Shown here: positions 4,384 to 39,510 of the stretch, piece after piece
Position numbering within the stretch: position 1 is the stretch's first letter
Layout: the number at the start of each line of letters is the position of its first letter
From: a virus
Length of the DNA stretch: 64,000 nt
IMG/VR virus record: IMGVR_UViG_3300036939_000021
Span: 32,001-96,000 of that record
Strand: one strand, 5' to 3'
Notes under the pieces: generated by a model
What the model was told of the DNA's origin: nothing
Seen by the model: the letters and a program-made list of their open reading frames with translations, nothing else
Databases searched by the model: none
Program-made: the position numbers and the translations under genes

Positions 4384-4620
4384 ACCGGAATAATATTTTA
4401 TTAAAAAATCTGCTTCAGTTTCGAGACACCAAAGCAGATAGTACAAACAAATTGTAACTGAGAGTGCTTTTAAATTTTAACAAAAAATCTTAAAAAATTT
4501 GTGTTTTTGTTATCACATCGAAGTATTTTTGAAAAATAATAAACTAACGTGTGGAAAACTATGTTGAATATGTGAATTATTCCAGTGATGAAATTATTAT
4601 ATAGAAATTTAAATATAGTC

Positions 4621-4687
4621 TTGACATATTAGATTTTTATAATTATAATAGAGGAGTCGGGAAAGAAAAGCTAAGGAAATCGAAAAA
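4621..4687 (+). promoter_or_regulatory. repeated early promoter/RBS module
   Basis: TTGACA-17nt-TATAAT-AGAGGAGTCGGGAAAGAAAAGCTAAGGAAATCGAAAAA-ATG. Confidence 0.9.
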
Positions 4688-4927: not shown

Positions 4928-4987
4928 TAAAACACTTTCGATTATTCCATGTCTTCTTTCTCTCCTCACCTTCGAGGAGATTTTTTT

Positions 4988-5263
4988 TTATCTAAGCGTT
5001 CCATCAAATATTCTTACAAAACCGCCATACTGTACAACTCGTACTACTACCTTTTTTGGTACAGAATTTAAACTCTGAAGACTTGCCACAGGTTTAAAAT
5101 CCCAATCGGAATTATGAGTACACAAATTTGTAAGAAATTCTAGAGATATAGAATTTTTTGTTGTGCGTTCTATCCAATAATAATTTTGTAAATAATTTAA
5201 ACCGTTAGGATCTGATTCTGATGATTGTGACATTTTCAACAAAATAAAATAATATGCTAACAC
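4988..5263 (-). CDS. hypothetical protein
   Basis: ORF track; start probably at MSQSS. Confidence 0.45.
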   Translation of the reverse strand: MLAYYFILLKMSQSSESDPNGLNYLQNYYWIERTTKNSISLEFLTNLCTHNSDWDFKPVASLQSLNSVPKKVVVRVVQYGGFVRIFDGTLR

Positions 5264-5596: not shown

Positions 5597-5617
5597 AAAA
5601 TATTTTTAAAATATATC

Positions 5618-5682
5618 TTGACATCTTAGATTTTTATTATTAAAATAAAGGAGTAGGAAAGAAAAGCTAAGGAAAGCGAAAA
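5618..5682 (+). promoter_or_regulatory. repeated early promoter/RBS module
   Basis: TTGACATCTTAGATTTTTATTATTAAAAT...GCTAAGGAAA; 5597-5647 is identical to 6956-7006 (51 bp). Confidence 0.9.
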
Positions 5683-6135
5683 ATGCCTAAACAAAATATT
5701 CTTTTTCTCTGCCATGTAGAAGAAAGCTTTAGATCATTTTTTCCTGATAAACTCTACGTCACACGATTAATAAAAGCTTGTCAATCTGTCAAATACGATC
5801 AAGTAATTGCACTAGTCAGCAATATTATGGATTATGATCCAATTCCTGAAATAGCTGATTTAGTAACAGATAGAATAGATTTTAGTTGGGGATATGAGCC
5901 AGAACAATTTGAAGATGAACCGGAAGAAGAAAAATTTATTATAGACGCTAGCTATAAATCCGCTCATGATTGGACTTGGATACCTCCAGAACTTAGAGAT
6001 AAATCATGGGCAACTAATAAAAATATCTATATCGGTGGTGGATGTAACGGAGAATGTCTAGCAGATTTTGAAGTAGTACTAGAAACACTAGATATAGATT
6101 ACAAACGAATAGAAGGATATATCTACGGAGTCTAA
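5683..6135 (+). CDS. putative cysteine-hydrolase (isochorismatase-like) fold protein
   Basis: N-terminal LFLCHVE strand and IYIGGGCNGECL motif. Confidence 0.5.
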   Translation: MPKQNILFLCHVEESFRSFFPDKLYVTRLIKACQSVKYDQVIALVSNIMDYDPIPEIADLVTDRIDFSWGYEPEQFEDEPEEEKFIIDASYKSAHDWTWIPPELRDKSWATNKNIYIGGGCNGECLADFEVVLETLDIDYKRIEGYIYGV

Positions 6136-6194: not shown

Positions 6195-6623
6195 ATGCAA
6201 ACATTTCTTCCTTATCCTGACTTTGTTAAATCTGCTGAATGTCTTGATAGACAAAGATTAGGTAAACAACGAGTCGAGTGTTTACAACTTCTTAATGCTA
6301 TTGCGGGAACTTCTAAAGGTTGGATTAATCATCCTTGTACCAAAATGTGGAAAGATTACCCAGAAGCATTAGTGCATTATTCCGTTGTAATTTGTTTTGA
6401 GTGGCGATCTAGAGGTTATAAAGATTCTTGTTTAGAAAAAATAGAAAATTTAGGACAGCAACAAAACTGGAAAATAGAACAAGATATTTTAAAATATCCT
6501 TCTTGGATAGGTAGAGAAGACGTACACGCTTCACATCGATCGAATTTACTTAGAAAACTTCCTGATCATTATCAGCAGTTTGGATGGAGTGAACCGGATA
6601 ATCTACCTTATATCTGGGTTTAA
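6195..6623 (+). CDS. pyrimidine-dimer DNA glycosylase/endonuclease V-like (MSMEG_6728 family)
   Basis: MQTFLPYPDF..SA..LD.QRLGKQRVE...HPCTKMW...HASHRSNLLRK. Confidence 0.88.
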   Translation: MQTFLPYPDFVKSAECLDRQRLGKQRVECLQLLNAIAGTSKGWINHPCTKMWKDYPEALVHYSVVICFEWRSRGYKDSCLEKIENLGQQQNWKIEQDILKYPSWIGREDVHASHRSNLLRKLPDHYQQFGWSEPDNLPYIWV

Positions 6624-6706
6624 TATCTAAAACATTCTCGATGATACTCTCCTCTCCTTAGAGGAGATTTTTTTTATAATAATATTGTTGAATTCTCAAA
6701 AAATTT

Positions 6707-6850
6707 ATGATGATTCTGAGTAAACAAGATTCAAAAGTTTTTGTAGAAGTTTTGCTTAATCCTCCGGACGTATCAGAAAAACTACAAAAATCTTCTGAAA
6801 ACTATAAACAGAAAATTCTAAATAAAAGTAGTCCATCTAAAATCGCCTAG
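6707..6850 (+). CDS. DUF1778 (TacA/AtaR-type antitoxin) C-terminal-domain-only protein, 47 aa
   Basis: Manual translation MMILSKQDSKVFVEVLLNPPDVSEKLQKSSENYKQK; upstream TATAAT. Confidence 0.65.
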   Translation: MMILSKQDSKVFVEVLLNPPDVSEKLQKSSENYKQKILNKSSPSKIA

Positions 6851-6976
6851 AAGACCTCTCTAATTTTTAGGCTATCTAGCCCTAGCCGCAAGCTTTTCGA
6901 GTCTTATAGACTCACCTAGACCATAATAAAAAGCCCTCCAGGATTCTCGAAGGCTAAAATATTTTTAAAATATATC

Positions 6977-7042
6977 TTGACATCTTAGATTTTTATTATT
7001 AAAATAGAGGAGTCGGGAAAGAAAAGCTAAGGAAATCGAAAA
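6977..7042 (+). promoter_or_regulatory. repeated early promoter/RBS module
   Basis: TTGACATCTTAGATTTTTATTATTAAAATAGAGGAGTCGGGAAAGAAAAGCTAAGGAAATCGAAAA. Confidence 0.9.
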
Positions 7043-7243
7043 ATGCTAAAACCTAACCAAGTCATTCAATACAAAGGTCTACAAATCGCTATCTTTGCTA
7101 CAAAATCAATGAAATATGTAGCAACAGTAGGACAATACGACCACTACATGACAAATGATGTAGCGGCTCTAGGCTTAGAGAACGCTGAAACTGCTACAAA
7201 GAGCGCTAAAGCTTATATTGATGATTTGAAAAAGACAGCATAG
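7043..7243 (+). CDS. hypothetical protein (cassette cargo)
   Basis: ORF after the promoter module; terminator at 7264-7295. Confidence 0.75.
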   Translation: MLKPNQVIQYKGLQIAIFATKSMKYVATVGQYDHYMTNDVAALGLENAETATKSAKAYIDDLKKTA

Positions 7244-7315
7244 AAGCTAACCTAGACCATAATAAAAAGCCCTCTAGAATCCTAGAGGGCTTTTTATTTT
7301 ACTTAAATTTTGATT

Positions 7316-8317
7316 TTAAGCGGCTAATGTTTCCTTAGCGAATAGATATGATTCCAGTTGTTCTTTCTTTTCTGGTACATACTCAAGCCATACCTTACCA
7401 CATTCTTGTTTCATCTCTATAGAAAACTGAAAGTCTATAAAATTCTCGCTAGGTGCTGGATGTTGTTTTTTAGAATAATCCTGATAAGGATTGGTTAGTA
7501 CACGATAGAGTTTTTCTGGAAGTGTCTTTTGAAATTGTTGATAAGACTTTTCCCAATTTGCAATTGCTGTTTGAATGTCTTCCTCATAGTCTTCATCTTC
7601 TAATTGCTCTTGTGTGACTTGAGTGAAGCCATAGGAAAAGAGATCAATTTGTTCGCCAGTAAATAAAGTATCGATGAGTTTTAGAAATAATCCTTGTCGC
7701 TTTTGCTCTAATTGGTGTTCCTCGTATTCTTCTTGAGTCATATTTTCAACGGATTTAAATCCATTTTGACTGAGAAAGGGTGAGTACTCATCGCCTCTGT
7801 AATTGATGATTTCTAAGAAACGCATTTTATGGAGAGGCATAGGATACGCCCAAGGTTCAATAGTTTTGATTTGATTGTCTTTAGCTGCAAGAGCTTTTTG
7901 TAGTTCTACTACCGTTTGTCGTAATTCCTCAAGTTCACCTCCAACGTTCTGATACTCAGTAACAACAGCTTGCGATGATACACCCTCAAGCATAACTACT
8001 TTATCTTTACCGAGTTTCTTAATGACATCGATAACCCATAAACGTAATTCAATATTTGACCAGTAACCAAAATCAATCACCATTTCTTCCGTTCCCCAAG
8101 TCCCTCCATATTTGCCTTTTTGGACATCTAAAACTTTACCTTTAGTTTTTTCTAAAGCTCTTGTTAACGCTAAAGTATTCTCATTTCGTAAATAATTTCC
8201 TATTAAAGTATTGGTACTTTTTGCCATATCTGTTAAACATCCCCAAATAGAACCATCATCTCTTGTTTCAAAACGGATATTTTTACCTTGAAATTCTTGT
8301 GTAATAATATTTGACAC
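7316..8317 (-). CDS. KilA-N domain protein
   Basis: IRFETRDDGSIWGCLTDMAK...YLRNENT...GGTWG...IDFGYW. Confidence 0.85.
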   Translation of the reverse strand: MSNIITQEFQGKNIRFETRDDGSIWGCLTDMAKSTNTLIGNYLRNENTLALTRALEKTKGKVLDVQKGKYGGTWGTEEMVIDFGYWSNIELRLWVIDVIKKLGKDKVVMLEGVSSQAVVTEYQNVGGELEELRQTVVELQKALAAKDNQIKTIEPWAYPMPLHKMRFLEIINYRGDEYSPFLSQNGFKSVENMTQEEYEEHQLEQKRQGLFLKLIDTLFTGEQIDLFSYGFTQVTQEQLEDEDYEEDIQTAIANWEKSYQQFQKTLPEKLYRVLTNPYQDYSKKQHPAPSENFIDFQFSIEMKQECGKVWLEYVPEKKEQLESYLFAKETLAA

Positions 8318-8321
8318 TATT

Positions 8322-8510
8322 TTAGTTTCCTTGTTGTTTTTGTGAAGTTTGAGTGAGATTGTTACGAAATTGCTCTAAAGCAACCTTAATAACAGCATTA
8401 GCGGAAATCTGATGATCAATTGAGTAAGACTTTAACCATTCTTTAAGTTCAGCCGTAAGTCTTACCGACATAGTTGGAACCAAATGTCCGGATGAATCTT
8501 TTTTGTTCAT
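8322..8510 (-). CDS. Arc/ribbon-helix-helix regulator
   Basis: MSVRLTAELKEWLKSYS...SANAVIKVALEQF. Confidence 0.8.
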   Translation of the reverse strand: MNKKDSSGHLVPTMSVRLTAELKEWLKSYSIDHQISANAVIKVALEQFRNNLTQTSQKQQGN

Positions 8511-22142: not shown

Positions 22143-23507
22143 ATGCCACCTACACAAACTCCTAATGCTGGTGCATTGCTTGAGACGGCTATTGCATCAG
22201 CAGCATTAACACAACTTAATCATGTTGCTATATATCCTCGTGTTGCGACTCGTGACTATGAACTGGGAGCATTTGCAAGAGGAAATGTAGTTAGGATTAG
22301 ACGCCCTAAGCGTAGACGTGCTGTAGATTTAGATCCTCGTACTGGTGGATTTAATTTTACAGAAGCAGAATTCTTTTCTGGGGAAGTAAAGCTAGAGCGT
22401 TTGTGGACTGACGGATTTTTGATGTATGGTCATGATTCACAGCAAACAATGGCTTTATATTTGGCTGAAACTGCTAGTCAAATTTCTGATGCTATCATTA
22501 CACCGAATGATGAGTATCTTTATACAAAATTTAGAGATTGGAGTCCCTTCGCTAGTGTTTTAAGCACGGGTGCTTATGCGCTTGGTGATACTCCACCATT
22601 TAATATTTCTTTTTGTATAAAAGATGATGGCACTCTTACAGAATTTAATAATGAAGGACTAAGAGGTGCTAGTGTTTTCTTAGATAAAGAAAATGCAGGT
22701 AATGATCGTTATGCTGTGATCTCTAGTTCTGCTAAAGGTGCTTTTCTTGGAGATAGTATAGCAATCGAAGGATCTAAAGTTGAAGCGGAAAAAGATCCAC
22801 TCTCTCAATTAATTATTGCTGGTATCAGACAAGGGCAATTTGTTGAGAGATATGGATTTAGACTTGCAGGATCTAATACCGTAGGTGGTCAAACAGGTAC
22901 ACCTGATTTAGATACAGTCGCAGGAATTCAGGGGACTTTACCTATTAGTGCTAGTGCTGCGAATACTCAGTTATCGTATGCTGATTTTAGTTCTACCTAT
23001 GGTGTAGGTTCTTTGATTGGTGCCGTAGATATTACTCTGACAGCCGGAACGGCTTTACCTCCAAGTATTGCAGTAGGTAAAATTGCTAGACTTGCACCAG
23101 GAACACCCAATAAGAGTAACGTATTTTATGGTGTTATTCTACGAGTAAATCTTACAACACCAACAGCACCTATTGTAACGATGGTTCCATATAAATGGAA
23201 TGGTCAAAAAATTCCTGCAACGGGAATTATTCCAGGTACTTACGTATTTAGCGTTCCTGACATTCCTAGCGTAAATACTGTAAACACTACTGAAGGTTTG
23301 TTGATGGCAAATCGTTTCTTACGTGAGCCACGTTTAGGAAGTGGAGCGGTTGCAGCAAGTATCCGTGACCCTCAGACTAATAATGTAATTCAAGTCTTTA
23401 CAGGGAATTATGACTTGGGTACTGTGAGCGAAAAGAATGCAGCTTATATGCTAACAGGTGCTAAAATTTCTGATTGTCGTAAGACTGGTTTGATTCTTTC
23501 ACTATAG
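22143..23507 (+). CDS. major capsid protein (P22 coat-like)
   Basis: RDYE...GNVVRIRRP N-terminal signature; follows the scaffold gene. Confidence 0.85.
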   Translation: MPPTQTPNAGALLETAIASAALTQLNHVAIYPRVATRDYELGAFARGNVVRIRRPKRRRAVDLDPRTGGFNFTEAEFFSGEVKLERLWTDGFLMYGHDSQQTMALYLAETASQISDAIITPNDEYLYTKFRDWSPFASVLSTGAYALGDTPPFNISFCIKDDGTLTEFNNEGLRGASVFLDKENAGNDRYAVISSSAKGAFLGDSIAIEGSKVEAEKDPLSQLIIAGIRQGQFVERYGFRLAGSNTVGGQTGTPDLDTVAGIQGTLPISASAANTQLSYADFSSTYGVGSLIGAVDITLTAGTALPPSIAVGKIARLAPGTPNKSNVFYGVILRVNLTTPTAPIVTMVPYKWNGQKIPATGIIPGTYVFSVPDIPSVNTVNTTEGLLMANRFLREPRLGSGAVAASIRDPQTNNVIQVFTGNYDLGTVSEKNAAYMLTGAKISDCRKTGLILSL

Positions 23508-29173: not shown

Positions 29174-29902
29174 ATGACTCAAAATACTAGACCAGTTGAC
29201 GTTTCAGCAAATGGCAGCACTTCACAGGTTAATCTAATCGTAGATAGAAACGCATCAGGACACGAGGCAATGGGACGAGCGTTAGTTCACAACGAAAACC
29301 TGGTCAGTGCCGCAAATCCTTTGCCTATCACCAATGCAAGCTTGCCTAGTACATTAGGTGCTAAAATAGCTGCTCAAAGTTTTGCGGTAACTCTTTCTAC
29401 TGACGGTGCGTTTGCTACTGCTTTCGGTGCTGCGACTGACGCTGCGTCTGCAACAGATACGGGAAACACTGGATTTATATCGCTTTTTAAACGTTTGTTT
29501 TCCAAGCTCCCAGCTGCTTTGGTAAACAATAGATTTGCTGTAGATTCAGTTGTCCGTACTGCTGTAACAAATCCATTGCAATATGCCGCCATAGGTACTA
29601 GTGCAGGCGCAAATATTAAAAATACAACAGGCTCACTTTATTCGTTGTCTTGTTTGAATTCAAATGCAAGCACTCGCTATGTTCAGCTTTTTAATAAGAA
29701 TACTGCTCCAGTGGCTAGTGATATACCGTTAGAAAGTTTTGCTGTCTACGGAAATGATGGTCAATTAGTGCTAGGTCAAGACTATTTTACGTTGAATGGT
29801 ATTGATTTTTCTACTGGTATTAGTTGGGGAATATCAACTACGCGTAACTTATATACAGCAGCTACAGCAGCAGATACTATTTTTACAGCGAGGTATTTAT
29901 GA
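29174..29902 (+). CDS. putative fibre/virion protein
   Basis: AATD...GFISLFKRL helix plus C-terminal beta domain (RYVQLFNK...FSTGISW). Confidence 0.6.
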   Translation: MTQNTRPVDVSANGSTSQVNLIVDRNASGHEAMGRALVHNENLVSAANPLPITNASLPSTLGAKIAAQSFAVTLSTDGAFATAFGAATDAASATDTGNTGFISLFKRLFSKLPAALVNNRFAVDSVVRTAVTNPLQYAAIGTSAGANIKNTTGSLYSLSCLNSNASTRYVQLFNKNTAPVASDIPLESFAVYGNDGQLVLGQDYFTLNGIDFSTGISWGISTTRNLYTAATAADTIFTARYL

Positions 29903-30768
29903 GCGGTTCTTTCCCTCCTCCATCTCTTGATCCTGTTGCTTTAACTTACGCGGCTCCTGGAACTTTTACTCTGACGATTCCTGCAAATGCAAAGTTGTTG
30001 CGCTTGATTGCAATAGCTTCCGGTAGTGGCGGTGCTAGCGGTCGTAGAGGTGCAGCGGGTACAGCCAGATTCGGTGGTGGTTCCGGTGCTTCTGGAAACA
30101 CTTCTGACGTAACCTATTCAGTCTCCTCTTTGGAATCCAGGATTCTCACAATTACTGTTCCTGCTGGTGGTGTTGGAGGAGCTGCTGTAACAACAGATGA
30201 TACTAATGGTGCTAATAGCGTAGCTGGAAGTTCTGCTTTTGTGACTATACCTGAACGAACTCTAATAGCCGCCAGTGGTAACGGGTTAGCGTCTGGTGGT
30301 ACTAACGCCGCTGGTGCGGGTGCGAGTATGTTCGCAGCCACTCAGCCCGGTACATTTTCAGGAGTGGCAGGAGTTTCAGCAATTGTCAATGGTACATCTA
30401 CGACAGGGCTATCTAATGCAAACGGCGCTGCTTCTGGTGGTGCCGGGGGGGGGATCGATGCAAGTAATGTCGTCAGAGCTGGAGGAAACGGAGGACTAGG
30501 TGGAAGAACTAATGCTCGGTCGTTAGCCGATGCTGGCAGTGGTGGTGCGATAGATACACCTGGAACTTCAGCAGGTGTACGACAGCCCGGAAATCTCGGA
30601 GGTTCTGGTGGTGGTGGCGGTGGGGCAAGTATCACTGCTGCTGGCGGCAATGGCGGTGACGGAATACTAGGTGGTGGCGGTGGCGGTGGCGGTGCCTCTG
30701 CTAACGGATTCAATTCTGGTGCTGGCGGTAAGGGTGGAGACGGAGCTGTGTATATTTACTACTGGTAA
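29899..30768 (+). CDS. glycine-rich fibre protein
   Basis: GSGGASG...GGGGGGG...GGKGGDGAVYIYYW; high GC. Confidence 0.75.
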   Translation: MSGSFPPPSLDPVALTYAAPGTFTLTIPANAKLLRLIAIASGSGGASGRRGAAGTARFGGGSGASGNTSDVTYSVSSLESRILTITVPAGGVGGAAVTTDDTNGANSVAGSSAFVTIPERTLIAASGNGLASGGTNAAGAGASMFAATQPGTFSGVAGVSAIVNGTSTTGLSNANGAASGGAGGGIDASNVVRAGGNGGLGGRTNARSLADAGSGGAIDTPGTSAGVRQPGNLGGSGGGGGGASITAAGGNGGDGILGGGGGGGGASANGFNSGAGGKGGDGAVYIYYW

Positions 30769-30774
30769 CAAATT

Positions 30775-32710: not shown

Positions 32711-32911
32711 ATGGCATGATTAGCTAAATTTGATAATACCGAAAAAATATTATATTTTCGAGAAAGTTCTAATTTGCCTTGGAGAGTATATAACACAACA
32801 CCTTATGCAACTCTTGGTTATAAAATTTCAAAAGGTTCTAAAGGTTGGACAACATACCAAAAGCTAAAAAAACTTAATTGGAAATTAATAGCAACCGAAA
32901 AAATAGAATAA
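32711..32911 (+). pseudogene. small cyanobacterial-type conserved hypothetical gene with TGA at codon 3
   Basis: MA*LAKFD...LYFR...PWR.Y...GSKGWTTYQKL.K..WKLI. Confidence 0.5.
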
Positions 32912-37953: not shown

Positions 37954-39510
37954 ATGGTAACACTCGATTCTCTCAAATACAGACACGCTGAACATCGGAA
38001 TAATGCAGCATATTGGCAATTGTTAGAAGCCACAATCGAAGGTGGTGATAAAGTATCTGATTCCATAAAAAGAGAACTTCTGCCAAATCCAGACGGAAGA
38101 CCGGAAGCGGTTATAAGAGAACGAATAAAATTAGCAACTTTTATAAATAAAATTTCTCCTATTCTTAATCGTTTTAATTCAGAATTATTTTCTCGTCCTG
38201 GTATACCTACAGGTAGTAATGATCCGTGGTGGAAAGAGAAATTCTTTGCAATGGGAGGTTTATTAGATGATGATGATGACGCTAGAGCTAATTTTAACAA
38301 TTATTTGCAACGATCTATGCATAATGCATTGGCAACAGGAAAAGCAATTGCACAGATCGATACACGAGTTAGTGCGTACCCGAACAATAAAGGCACTCAA
38401 CAAAGAATAGGTGAATTAGATCCCTATGTAATTTTGCATCCTCGTACTGCTTTATGGGATTGGGATAATTCTAGTGAAGGATTTAATTTTGTAAAATTAC
38501 AACAATTTCGATTAGTTCGAGAAAATTGGGAAAACTCTCCAATACCTGAACATATTTTTACAATTTATTTTCGTAATGGCTCAAGAGTTTTAGTATCAAA
38601 ATATCGAGTGCGACTACGAAATAATAAAGAAAAATTAGTAACACCTTTTATAGAACGTGTAGAAGAAAAAGATATAGTAATTATTCCAGATAATGCTAAC
38701 GGTGTTAGTTTAGAGAATCAGGAGATTTTTAATATTGGCGGATATTTTAAATTTCCTGTTGTAACGCTTACTCTACCGACTCCTCTTTGGATGGGGTCAC
38801 AATTATTTGAGTGTCAGAAAAGTTATTTTAGACAAACAGCAGCTATTGAGTATGCACTTTATACAGGGAATTACGGTATTCTTACAATAAATAATGTTGA
38901 AGATGAAACTGAAGATCCATTAGCAGGTAGACAAATAGGAGACGGTTATTATCTGTGTCTAAAAGAAGGTCAGAGTATCAATTGGTTAGAGCGAAGTGGA
39001 GGGACTGTAACGACAGCAATAAATTATCGTGCCGAAATCAAGAGAGATATTTACGACACATTACAACAAATAGCCATGAGTGCTGCTGATGGAGCTAGCA
39101 TTTTAAGTCGTAGTGGTGAAAGTAAAAAAGAAGATCGTAGACCAGAAGAAATTTTATTATTAAAATATGGAGAACTTGTTAAAGAATATTCTAAAAATAT
39201 TTTAGATTGTGCAAGTGTAGCTAGAGGAGAACGTGTAGAGTGGGAAGTAAAAGGATATGATGATTTTCTTACCGCAGGTCTTACAGATGTTTTAGCTGAT
39301 TATGCCGGAATAGCAACCGCTAATATACAATCACAAACATTTAAAAAAGAGCTTCAAAAGCATCTTATTACACAAGCAGCTAAAGCAATGGATATGAACC
39401 CTGATGCTGTGCAAAAAAGTATTGATGAAATAGATCAAGCAAAAAATATATCATTATTACCAGAAGCACAAGAAGCGTCACCAGTAAATATGAATGGGAA
39501 TGGTTTATAA
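37954..39510 (+). CDS. portal protein
   Basis: 518 aa; LLP...R...A...N..SPI...LF and SGESKKED motifs typical of siphovirus portals. Confidence 0.82.
   Translation: MVTLDSLKYRHAEHRNNAAYWQLLEATIEGGDKVSDSIKRELLPNPDGRPEAVIRERIKLATFINKISPILNRFNSELFSRPGIPTGSNDPWWKEKFFAMGGLLDDDDDARANFNNYLQRSMHNALATGKAIAQIDTRVSAYPNNKGTQQRIGELDPYVILHPRTALWDWDNSSEGFNFVKLQQFRLVRENWENSPIPEHIFTIYFRNGSRVLVSKYRVRLRNNKEKLVTPFIERVEEKDIVIIPDNANGVSLENQEIFNIGGYFKFPVVTLTLPTPLWMGSQLFECQKSYFRQTAAIEYALYTGNYGILTINNVEDETEDPLAGRQIGDGYYLCLKEGQSINWLERSGGTVTTAINYRAEIKRDIYDTLQQIAMSAADGASILSRSGESKKEDRRPEEILLLKYGELVKEYSKNILDCASVARGERVEWEVKGYDDFLTAGLTDVLADYAGIATANIQSQTFKKELQKHLITQAAKAMDMNPDAVQKSIDEIDQAKNISLLPEAQEASPVNMNGNGL

Follow-up and report, generated by a model that had tools for sequence, protein, structure and literature searches.

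A 47-residue phage reading frame homologous to the toxin-binding C-terminal region of DUF1778/TacA antitoxins: a candidate trimmed antitoxin of Nostocales origin

T4 Dmd is a phage antitoxin mimic directed against RnlA and LsoA. Other phage orphan antitoxins have been described as counter-defence, including AdfA and the NADAR/DarG-like enzymes that act against DarTG, and orphan antitoxins of type II are considered hard to recognise, being short and disordered (PMC11825919). For the DUF1778 antitoxins (PF08681; TacA, AtaR and KacA), the division of labour within the protein is well described. In the structure of KacA-KacT with DNA, KacA residues 5-51 form the RHH domain and residues 52-86 comprise strand betaB, helix alphaC, the linker PPAP and helix alphaD, with this second segment wrapping the toxin and providing the high-affinity contact. 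Neutralisation requires Arg77 of KacA, which competes with acetyl-CoA binding, and is also lost in the triple mutant M65A/I68A/Q70A (PMC6698736). The pairing of TacA with TacT is described as usually highly specific in the work of Grabe et al. as it is cited in PMC9431474, and the non-cognate KacA3 neutralises KacT2 at 34% identity (PMC9431474). At the level of annotation, ORF106 of cyanophage S-CREM1 has been recorded as an orphan TacA, with a suggestion of counter-defence (PMC9964418), and DUF1778 genes have likewise been annotated in the Klebsiella phages vB_KpnM_VAC13 and VAC66 (PMC10100988). Our own literature search found no report of GNAT/DUF1778 modules protecting against phages.

The open reading frame considered here, which we refer to as mini-TacA, lies in an accessory region of a phage genome. 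The window, by which we mean the whole 64,000-nucleotide stretch of DNA that was analysed, comprises bases 32001-96000 of virus record IMGVR_UViG_3300036939_000021, which is 105,884 bp long, has direct terminal repeats and is estimated to be 100% complete. Its features around the ORF are as follows, in window positions.

6648-6677, plus strand: intrinsic terminator, with an 8-bp stem and a T-run behind it, that ends the preceding operon of genes 5683-6135 and 6195-6623 and fills the 83-nt gap before mini-TacA
6675-6680, plus strand: TATAAT hexamer in the T-tail of that terminator, 26 nt before the ATG, without a -35 element or a TG extension
6689-6691, plus strand: in-frame TGA lying 15 nt before the ATG and limiting the open frame to 52 aa
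6707-6850, plus strand: mini-TacA ORF, 47 aa, with ATG at 6707, a second ATG at 6710 and TAG at 6848-6850; peptide MMILSKQDSKVFVEVLLNPPDVSEKLQKSSENYKQKILNKSSPSKIA
Parts of the 47-aa peptide: strand MMILS, helix at residues 6-17, linker NPPDVS, helix at residues 24-41 and a poorly conserved 10-residue tail
6911-6955, no strand assigned: repeated terminator-like element downstream of mini-TacA, with a second copy at 7247-7291 after the next small gene
6964-7043, plus strand: 80-nt promoter and 5'-leader cassette serving the next gene (7043-7243), with copies at 4608-4687 and 5605-5684

The preliminary description of this DNA had reported a 47-aa ORF with a TATAAT of its own. The ORF is real, its start, stop and peptide all being as given there, and since the exact 47-aa protein is already present in public collections (NCBI, JGI/IMG and Logan), gene callers do predict it. 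The promoter fared less well: the hexamer is present, but it sits in the T-tail of a terminator, it lacks a -35 element and a promoter scan passed it over, and it is possibly a weak promoter only. The preceding gene (6195-6623) encodes a pyrimidine-dimer glycosylase, a promiscuous gene that yielded no syntenic loci when used as an anchor, and a near-identical copy of the terminator that follows it is found at 4960-4988. The 113 nt downstream of mini-TacA are occupied by the terminator-like repeat and then by the next promoter cassette. This 80-nt cassette, which combines a promoter (TTGACA...TAAAAT), a conserved 5' leader and an RBS, recurs before successive small genes and, together with the paired look-alike terminators, suggests that these small genes are organised as modular cassettes. 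Unlike its neighbours, mini-TacA has no copy of the cassette ahead of it. It is also not preceded by a Shine-Dalgarno sequence, which says little because only 21 of the 88 ATG-initiated ORFs of at least 100 aa in the whole phage genome carry a Shine-Dalgarno-like 4-mer between -20 and -4, a share that fits the SD-poor translation initiation of cyanobacteria. No Rfam family matched the ORF, the search giving nothing but terminator-like noise at 7203-7363, and folding of the flanks around it gave nothing unusual. Further downstream, a 62-aa Arc-like RHH protein (8322-8510, minus strand; PHROG 3180 at E 7.6e-6 and a weak DUF6290 match) is encoded directly upstream of a 333-aa KilA-N protein (7316-8317, minus strand); the two likely form a regulatory pair with no relation to the RHH domain of TacA.

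Mini-TacA is homologous to the C-terminal, toxin-binding region of the DUF1778/TacA antitoxins. The PF08681 (TacA1) profile aligns residues 2-34 of the ORF with profile positions 47-79 of 80 (E 0.0012, 19.2 bits), which stays under the gathering cut-off of 21 bits because only the C-terminal part of the family is present. With phmmer run without filters against 1.84 billion representative proteins, the hits apart from the ORF itself and a 2,411-aa protein (P0002) were five proteins that are 48-118 aa long (E 3e-5 to 8e-4), and each of these short relatives itself passes PF08681, matching the C-terminal half of the profile with 30.7-45.7 bits. Searched against single Nostocaceae genomes, the ORF gives an E-value of about 5e-9. 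When all 2,738 six-frame ORFs of the phage were searched with an HMM built from 32 full-length cellular TacA proteins, mini-TacA scored 48.4 bits (E 1e-13), with the next best ORF at E 0.19; the score is somewhat flattered because the relatives were chosen with the help of the query, and the unbiased searches agree with it. A profile made from the C-terminal alignment, including the ORF, matched among known structures the TacA3 peptide (7ak9_C, 3.8e-6), KacA (5.6e-4), AtaR (1.6e-3) and two other DUF1778 structures, and a profile search of a collection of 5.8 billion proteins gave 2,338 relatives, the top ones being from Nostocales or metagenomic, with identity of up to 65-68%. PHROGs, NCBIfam and PADLOC had nothing for the ORF, a word-based protein search with the single sequence found only the ORF itself, and a search for longer relatives found nothing.

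The part of the antitoxin that is represented can be defined quite closely by comparison with KacA. In a profile alignment to KacA residues 50-84, phage MMILS falls on betaB, PPDV on the linker PPAP and Lys25 on Arg77, a position at which lysine is found in the Nostocales TacAs as well, and V13, L16 and N18 fall on M65, I68 and Q70. AlphaFold2, given an alignment of 58 rows, predicted a helix at residues 6-17, a linker and a helix at residues 24-41, with a pLDDT of 85.8 overall and 91-95 over residues 1-30; as the model was built on the family alignment, it is not independent of the homology. In a Foldseek search of 350,542 PDB chains, the six best hits to this model were the C-terminal regions of AtaR, TacA3 and KacA in their toxin complexes (rmsd 1.2-1.9 Å), two of the top entries being toxins crystallised with the antitoxin C-terminal peptide alone; the E-values are poor (1.6-6.9), reflecting the shortness of the model. 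The ORF therefore encodes the complete module that grips the toxin and no part of the DNA-binding domain. The TacA HMM detected no RHH domain near the ORF, the 83-nt gap upstream is taken up by the terminator, and the in-frame TGA at 6689-6691 leaves no room for such a domain in the frame of the ORF. A weak RHH-like match outside the window, at genome positions 102514-102771, had an E-value of 0.19 and was rejected as chance.

A toxin partner was also sought. Neither PF00583 (Acetyltransf_1) nor PF13508 (Acetyltransf_7) matched anywhere in the 105,884-bp genome, when all 14 of 14 control genomes gave matches, and searches with the cognate Nostocales toxins, as with an HMM built from 28 of these, produced only chance-level matches to the phage, none of which lay near the ORF. 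The preliminary description had proposed DUF1778 similarity, the lack of an adjacent toxin and retention of the neutralising half alone, and on each point the data agree with it: the PF08681, phmmer and TacA-HMM scores bear out the similarity, no GNAT gene or toxin remnant was detected genome-wide, and what is encoded is a C-terminal module without RHH that begins at betaB. With no RHH, no adjacent GNAT gene and a score below the Pfam cut-off, mini-TacA is best described as a derivative of the C-terminal module of the family and not as a member of a toxin-antitoxin pair.

The nearest relatives point to the origin of the sequence. When prokaryotes were scanned at one genome per species, 38 loci were obtained, of which the best, about 28, are in Nostocales (Halotia, Nostoc, Aliinostoc, Anabaena, Dolichospermum, Aphanizomenon, Calothrix and others) and show 49-63% identity over residues 1-37; a homologue at E <= 1e-3 is found in 36 of 151 sampled genomes of Nostocaceae. 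The ORF matches the C-terminal third of Nostocales TacA proteins of about 101-105 aa, which have the form '...ERLEARISKEQKE.FQRAA.IQGRTLTDFV...QEHEMMILSRQDQEVFVEALLNPPEPSAKLKAAAQRYKQNMGV', and its start coincides exactly with the internal Met-Met of the 'EHE-MMILS' of these relatives, where strand betaB begins in KacA. The Nostocales TacA genes are followed without a gap by an ORF of about 171 aa, and the six of these downstream ORFs that were sampled are GNAT acetyltransferases by Pfam; the relatives are therefore canonical TacA-TacT pairs. Among viruses, the patterns used retrieved no homologue from 2.9 million IMG/VR contigs. Since the DUF1778 genes of S-CREM1 and the Klebsiella phages were not retrieved with a Nostocales-type sequence, the phage copy represents an independent acquisition, and mini-TacA would thus appear, from its sequence, to be Nostocales-derived and to lack a close viral relative. 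A resemblance of the ORF tail to the start of the donor toxin gene was considered and is too weak to claim.

Short TacA-like ORFs occur in the hosts as well. Stand-alone 47-aa ORFs without RHH are present in at least four Nostocales sources (L150:2489-2632 and L151:2489-2632, on contigs G073:C232 and G118:C23, together with P0054 and P0074), with the form 'MNQEIMILSKEDQKVF.AALLNPP.PSLKL.NAA.RYKKYVLKSLKQ'. They lie on a block of about 190 bp that is about 95% identical between two genomes and is found in unrelated contexts with no GNAT gene adjoining, and the pair differs by two synonymous and five non-synonymous changes, with no clear purifying selection. Two further loci (L153 and L154, on G037:C43 and G050:C12) are degenerate tacAT loci cut beside transposase genes, L154 retaining a 52-aa N-terminal piece of the GNAT gene, and they show how C-terminal TacA fragments arise in hosts.

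The remainder of the genome is in keeping with a host of this kind. The phage has siphovirus-type tail genes, a portal and replication genes, and the window has a G+C content of about 32%. The structural region gives a multi-gene match, at 64-69% nucleotide identity, to contigs of two Nostocaceae assemblies (G095:C53 and G027:C282), which may be related prophages or co-assembled phages; the matching parts are window positions 38057-39362 and 22209-23500 (portal and neighbouring gene). The N-terminal part of the polymerase is closest to the polymerases of Nodularia and Pseudanabaena phages. Given these matches, the polymerase affinity and the Nostocales affinity of mini-TacA, a Nostocales host is likely, and the 106-kb phage probably infects filamentous (Nostoc-type) cyanobacteria. 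Neither of the two assemblies with related phage contigs has a mini-TacA homologue, G027 giving nothing at E <= 1 and G095 one chance-level match (E 0.49). No close relative of the phage was found in the isolate phage collection, and in five distant IMG/VR relatives (portal 53-59% identical) the whole accessory region of 4.5-9 kb is missing, mini-TacA included. Elsewhere in the window, a stretch of 32-50 nt within a small ORF (32818-32889) recurs at 80-94% identity in dozens of Nostocaceae genomes, and glycine-rich GGY repeats with a local GC of 46% (30590-30770), which end the ORF at 29899-30768, account for many short exact matches to cyanobacterial genomes.

On the basis of the sequence, the predicted structure and the analogy with known antitoxins, we consider it moderately probable that mini-TacA is a host-derived, trimmed antitoxin, in which a fragment of a Nostocales-type tacA-tacT locus has been cut down to the GNAT-wrapping strand-helix-PPxP-helix module and would serve to silence the TacT of the host. 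The gene would act from within an accessory region of small genes with sigma-70-type promoter cassettes, transcribed either by polymerase that reads through the weak terminator with its 8-bp stem or from the bare TATAAT. The 47-aa peptide would then bind monomers of a TacT-like acetyltransferase of the host, in the way seen in crystals for the C-terminal peptides of AtaR and TacA3, with Lys25 standing for KacA Arg77, the competitor of acetyl-CoA binding, and Val13, Leu16 and Asn18 standing for the KacA residues that cover the toxin dimer interface. Without an RHH domain, the peptide would neither dimerise on DNA nor repress any operon. During infection, host shut-off would stop the resupply of the labile TacA, and the freed TacT would acetylate aminoacyl-tRNAs, halt translation and abort the infection; by replacing the missing antitoxin tail, the phage peptide would keep the toxin silent and leave aminoacyl-tRNAs usable for phage translation. 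Such an anti-toxin counter-defence is plausible and has precedents. The data themselves show the homology, the trimming point, the lack of a toxin and the conservative divergence; expression, binding, target and benefit are what we infer.

This model presupposes that the ORF is a working gene. If it is instead an inert remnant of a host tacAT locus, caught by illegitimate recombination and now decaying, then its ATG is simply the internal Met-Met of the donor and no functional peptide would be made. Some features of the locus would suit such a history: mini-TacA is a singleton within an accessory region, has a terminator before it and the next promoter cassette after it and lacks the promoter family of its neighbours, and similar truncated leftovers lie beside IS elements in Nostocales genomes (L095, L110, L153 and L154). 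The natural stop has also been lost, leaving a 10-residue unconserved tail. The protein keeps 11 of the 15 invariant or nearly invariant columns of the family; the departures are A15V, P22V, A29S and A30S, and in addition the family motif 'RYK' reads 'NYK', with Asn for the Arg of most relatives. Its codon-usage score is merely intermediate, at the 12th percentile of windows from true genes, with 21% of spurious ORFs scoring higher.

The way in which the sequence has diverged stands against decay. Nucleotide identity to the Nostocales genes is 0.59-0.68, and in the closest genes identity is highest at the second codon position (about 0.78), lower at the first (about 0.65) and lowest at the third (about 0.57). 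We simulated neutral drift by starting from the Halotia sequence and placing the observed 37 nucleotide differences randomly, with the base composition of the phage, in 4,000 sequences. The frame stayed open in 15% of these (587 sequences), and none of the 587 reached the observed 22 identical residues of 37 (mean 14.2, sd 2.0); the HMM score of 48.3 bits for the ORF compares with a maximum of 27.4 bits among the open simulated sequences. The ORF has moreover a phage-like base composition (G+C 30%, GC3 23%), as opposed to 38-47% in the donors, which suggests that it has long resided in the phage, where stops should by now have arisen in an AT-rich frame not under selection, and its trimming to the functional module is clean, leaving neither RHH nor toxin debris. 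The pattern of divergence thus argues for protein-level constraint, part of which was possibly exerted in an unsampled donor before capture. Because selection may have preceded capture, codon usage is intermediate and tacA leftovers do lie beside IS elements in cyanobacteria, we still regard the inert remnant as a serious, though less likely, alternative; the observation itself is real and the mini-TacA, as far as its sequence tells, probably functional.

A functional peptide need not be aimed at the chromosomal TacT of the host. It could serve anti-addiction or superinfection, acting on GNAT toxins of plasmids or prophages, it could titrate TacT and so perturb tacAT autoregulation, or it could act on another GNAT enzyme. 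The stand-alone 47-aa ORFs without RHH and without an adjacent GNAT gene in Nostocaceae chromosomes (L150, L151, P0054 and P0074) would fit anti-addiction, a model discussed for orphan antitoxins in PMC11825919 and PMC9431474. However, the lack of clear purifying selection in these host ORFs, with two synonymous and five non-synonymous differences, is at odds with this, and the sequence offers no distinction between such targets and the host chromosomal TacT; we regard these other roles as improbable. That a chance ORF should resemble DUF1778 fortuitously, a notion for which the Pfam score below the gathering cut-off and the many spurious ORFs of 25-46 aa in this AT-rich window might be cited, is already refuted to near certainty by the phmmer relatives at E 3e-5 to 8e-4, all five short ones being DUF1778 proteins, by the E-value of about 5e-9 per genome and by the clade HMM at E 1e-13.

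If mini-TacA is indeed a trimmed antitoxin that silences host TacT, then it would give the first sign that phages of bloom-forming and symbiotic Nostocales are threatened by tRNA-acetylating GNAT toxins, it would imply that the disordered tail of a type II antitoxin suffices alone as a viral counter-defence, and it would represent a minimal natural inhibitor of TacT-type toxins. The sequence also supplies candidate toxin partners, namely the GNAT genes adjoining the closest Nostocales TacA homologues, among them those at L082:3121-3636, L083:3121-3630 and L093:3121-3651. More broadly, and with less than even confidence, we can put forward the tentative idea that the TacAT systems of filamentous cyanobacteria are an abortive-infection defence, that unrelated phages have repeatedly trimmed tacA to an RHH-less antidote peptide of 40-55 residues, and that the 47-aa tails of Nostocaceae are the same device turned against toxin-bearing elements. 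Were the ORF only a remnant, it would still document gene flow from Nostocales toxin-antitoxin loci into the phage lineage and support the host assignment.

Set beside the TacA, AtaR and KacA antitoxins of PF08681, mini-TacA shares the strand-helix-PPxP-helix module, at 49-65% identity to Nostocales and metagenomic proteins, keeps the L, D, F, LLNPP, L and YK positions and has a basic residue at the site of KacA Arg77, and its predicted fold superposes on the toxin-bound tails of AtaR, TacA3 and KacA. It differs from them in having 47 aa where they have about 90-105, in lacking the RHH and with it dimerisation on DNA and autoregulation, in being encoded by a phage with no GNAT gene adjacent or distant, and in the substitutions A15V, P22V and AA29-30SS, the R-to-N change in 'RYK' and the extra unconserved tail. 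Its closest counterparts in form are the stand-alone ORFs of Nostocaceae (P0054, P0074, L150 and L151), which are of equal length and contain the same module (start '...EIMILS'), likewise with no RHH and no adjacent GNAT gene, whereas they are chromosomal, lie on the block of about 190 bp and are 44-50% identical to the phage ORF. With S-CREM1, VAC13 and VAC66 it has in common a DUF1778-like gene in lytic phages without TacT. As a phage-encoded homologue of a host antitoxin without its toxin, mini-TacA is an orphan antitoxin, and like Dmd, AdfA and the DarG-like proteins it is a phage-borne relative or mimic of an antitoxin, found among accessory genes with no partner toxin, for which the silencing of a host toxin during infection is the proposed role. 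For those systems the role has been shown experimentally, whereas for mini-TacA it is one that we infer, and whereas the DarG-like proteins are enzymes that reverse damage, mini-TacA would be a stoichiometric binder in the manner of type II antitoxins.
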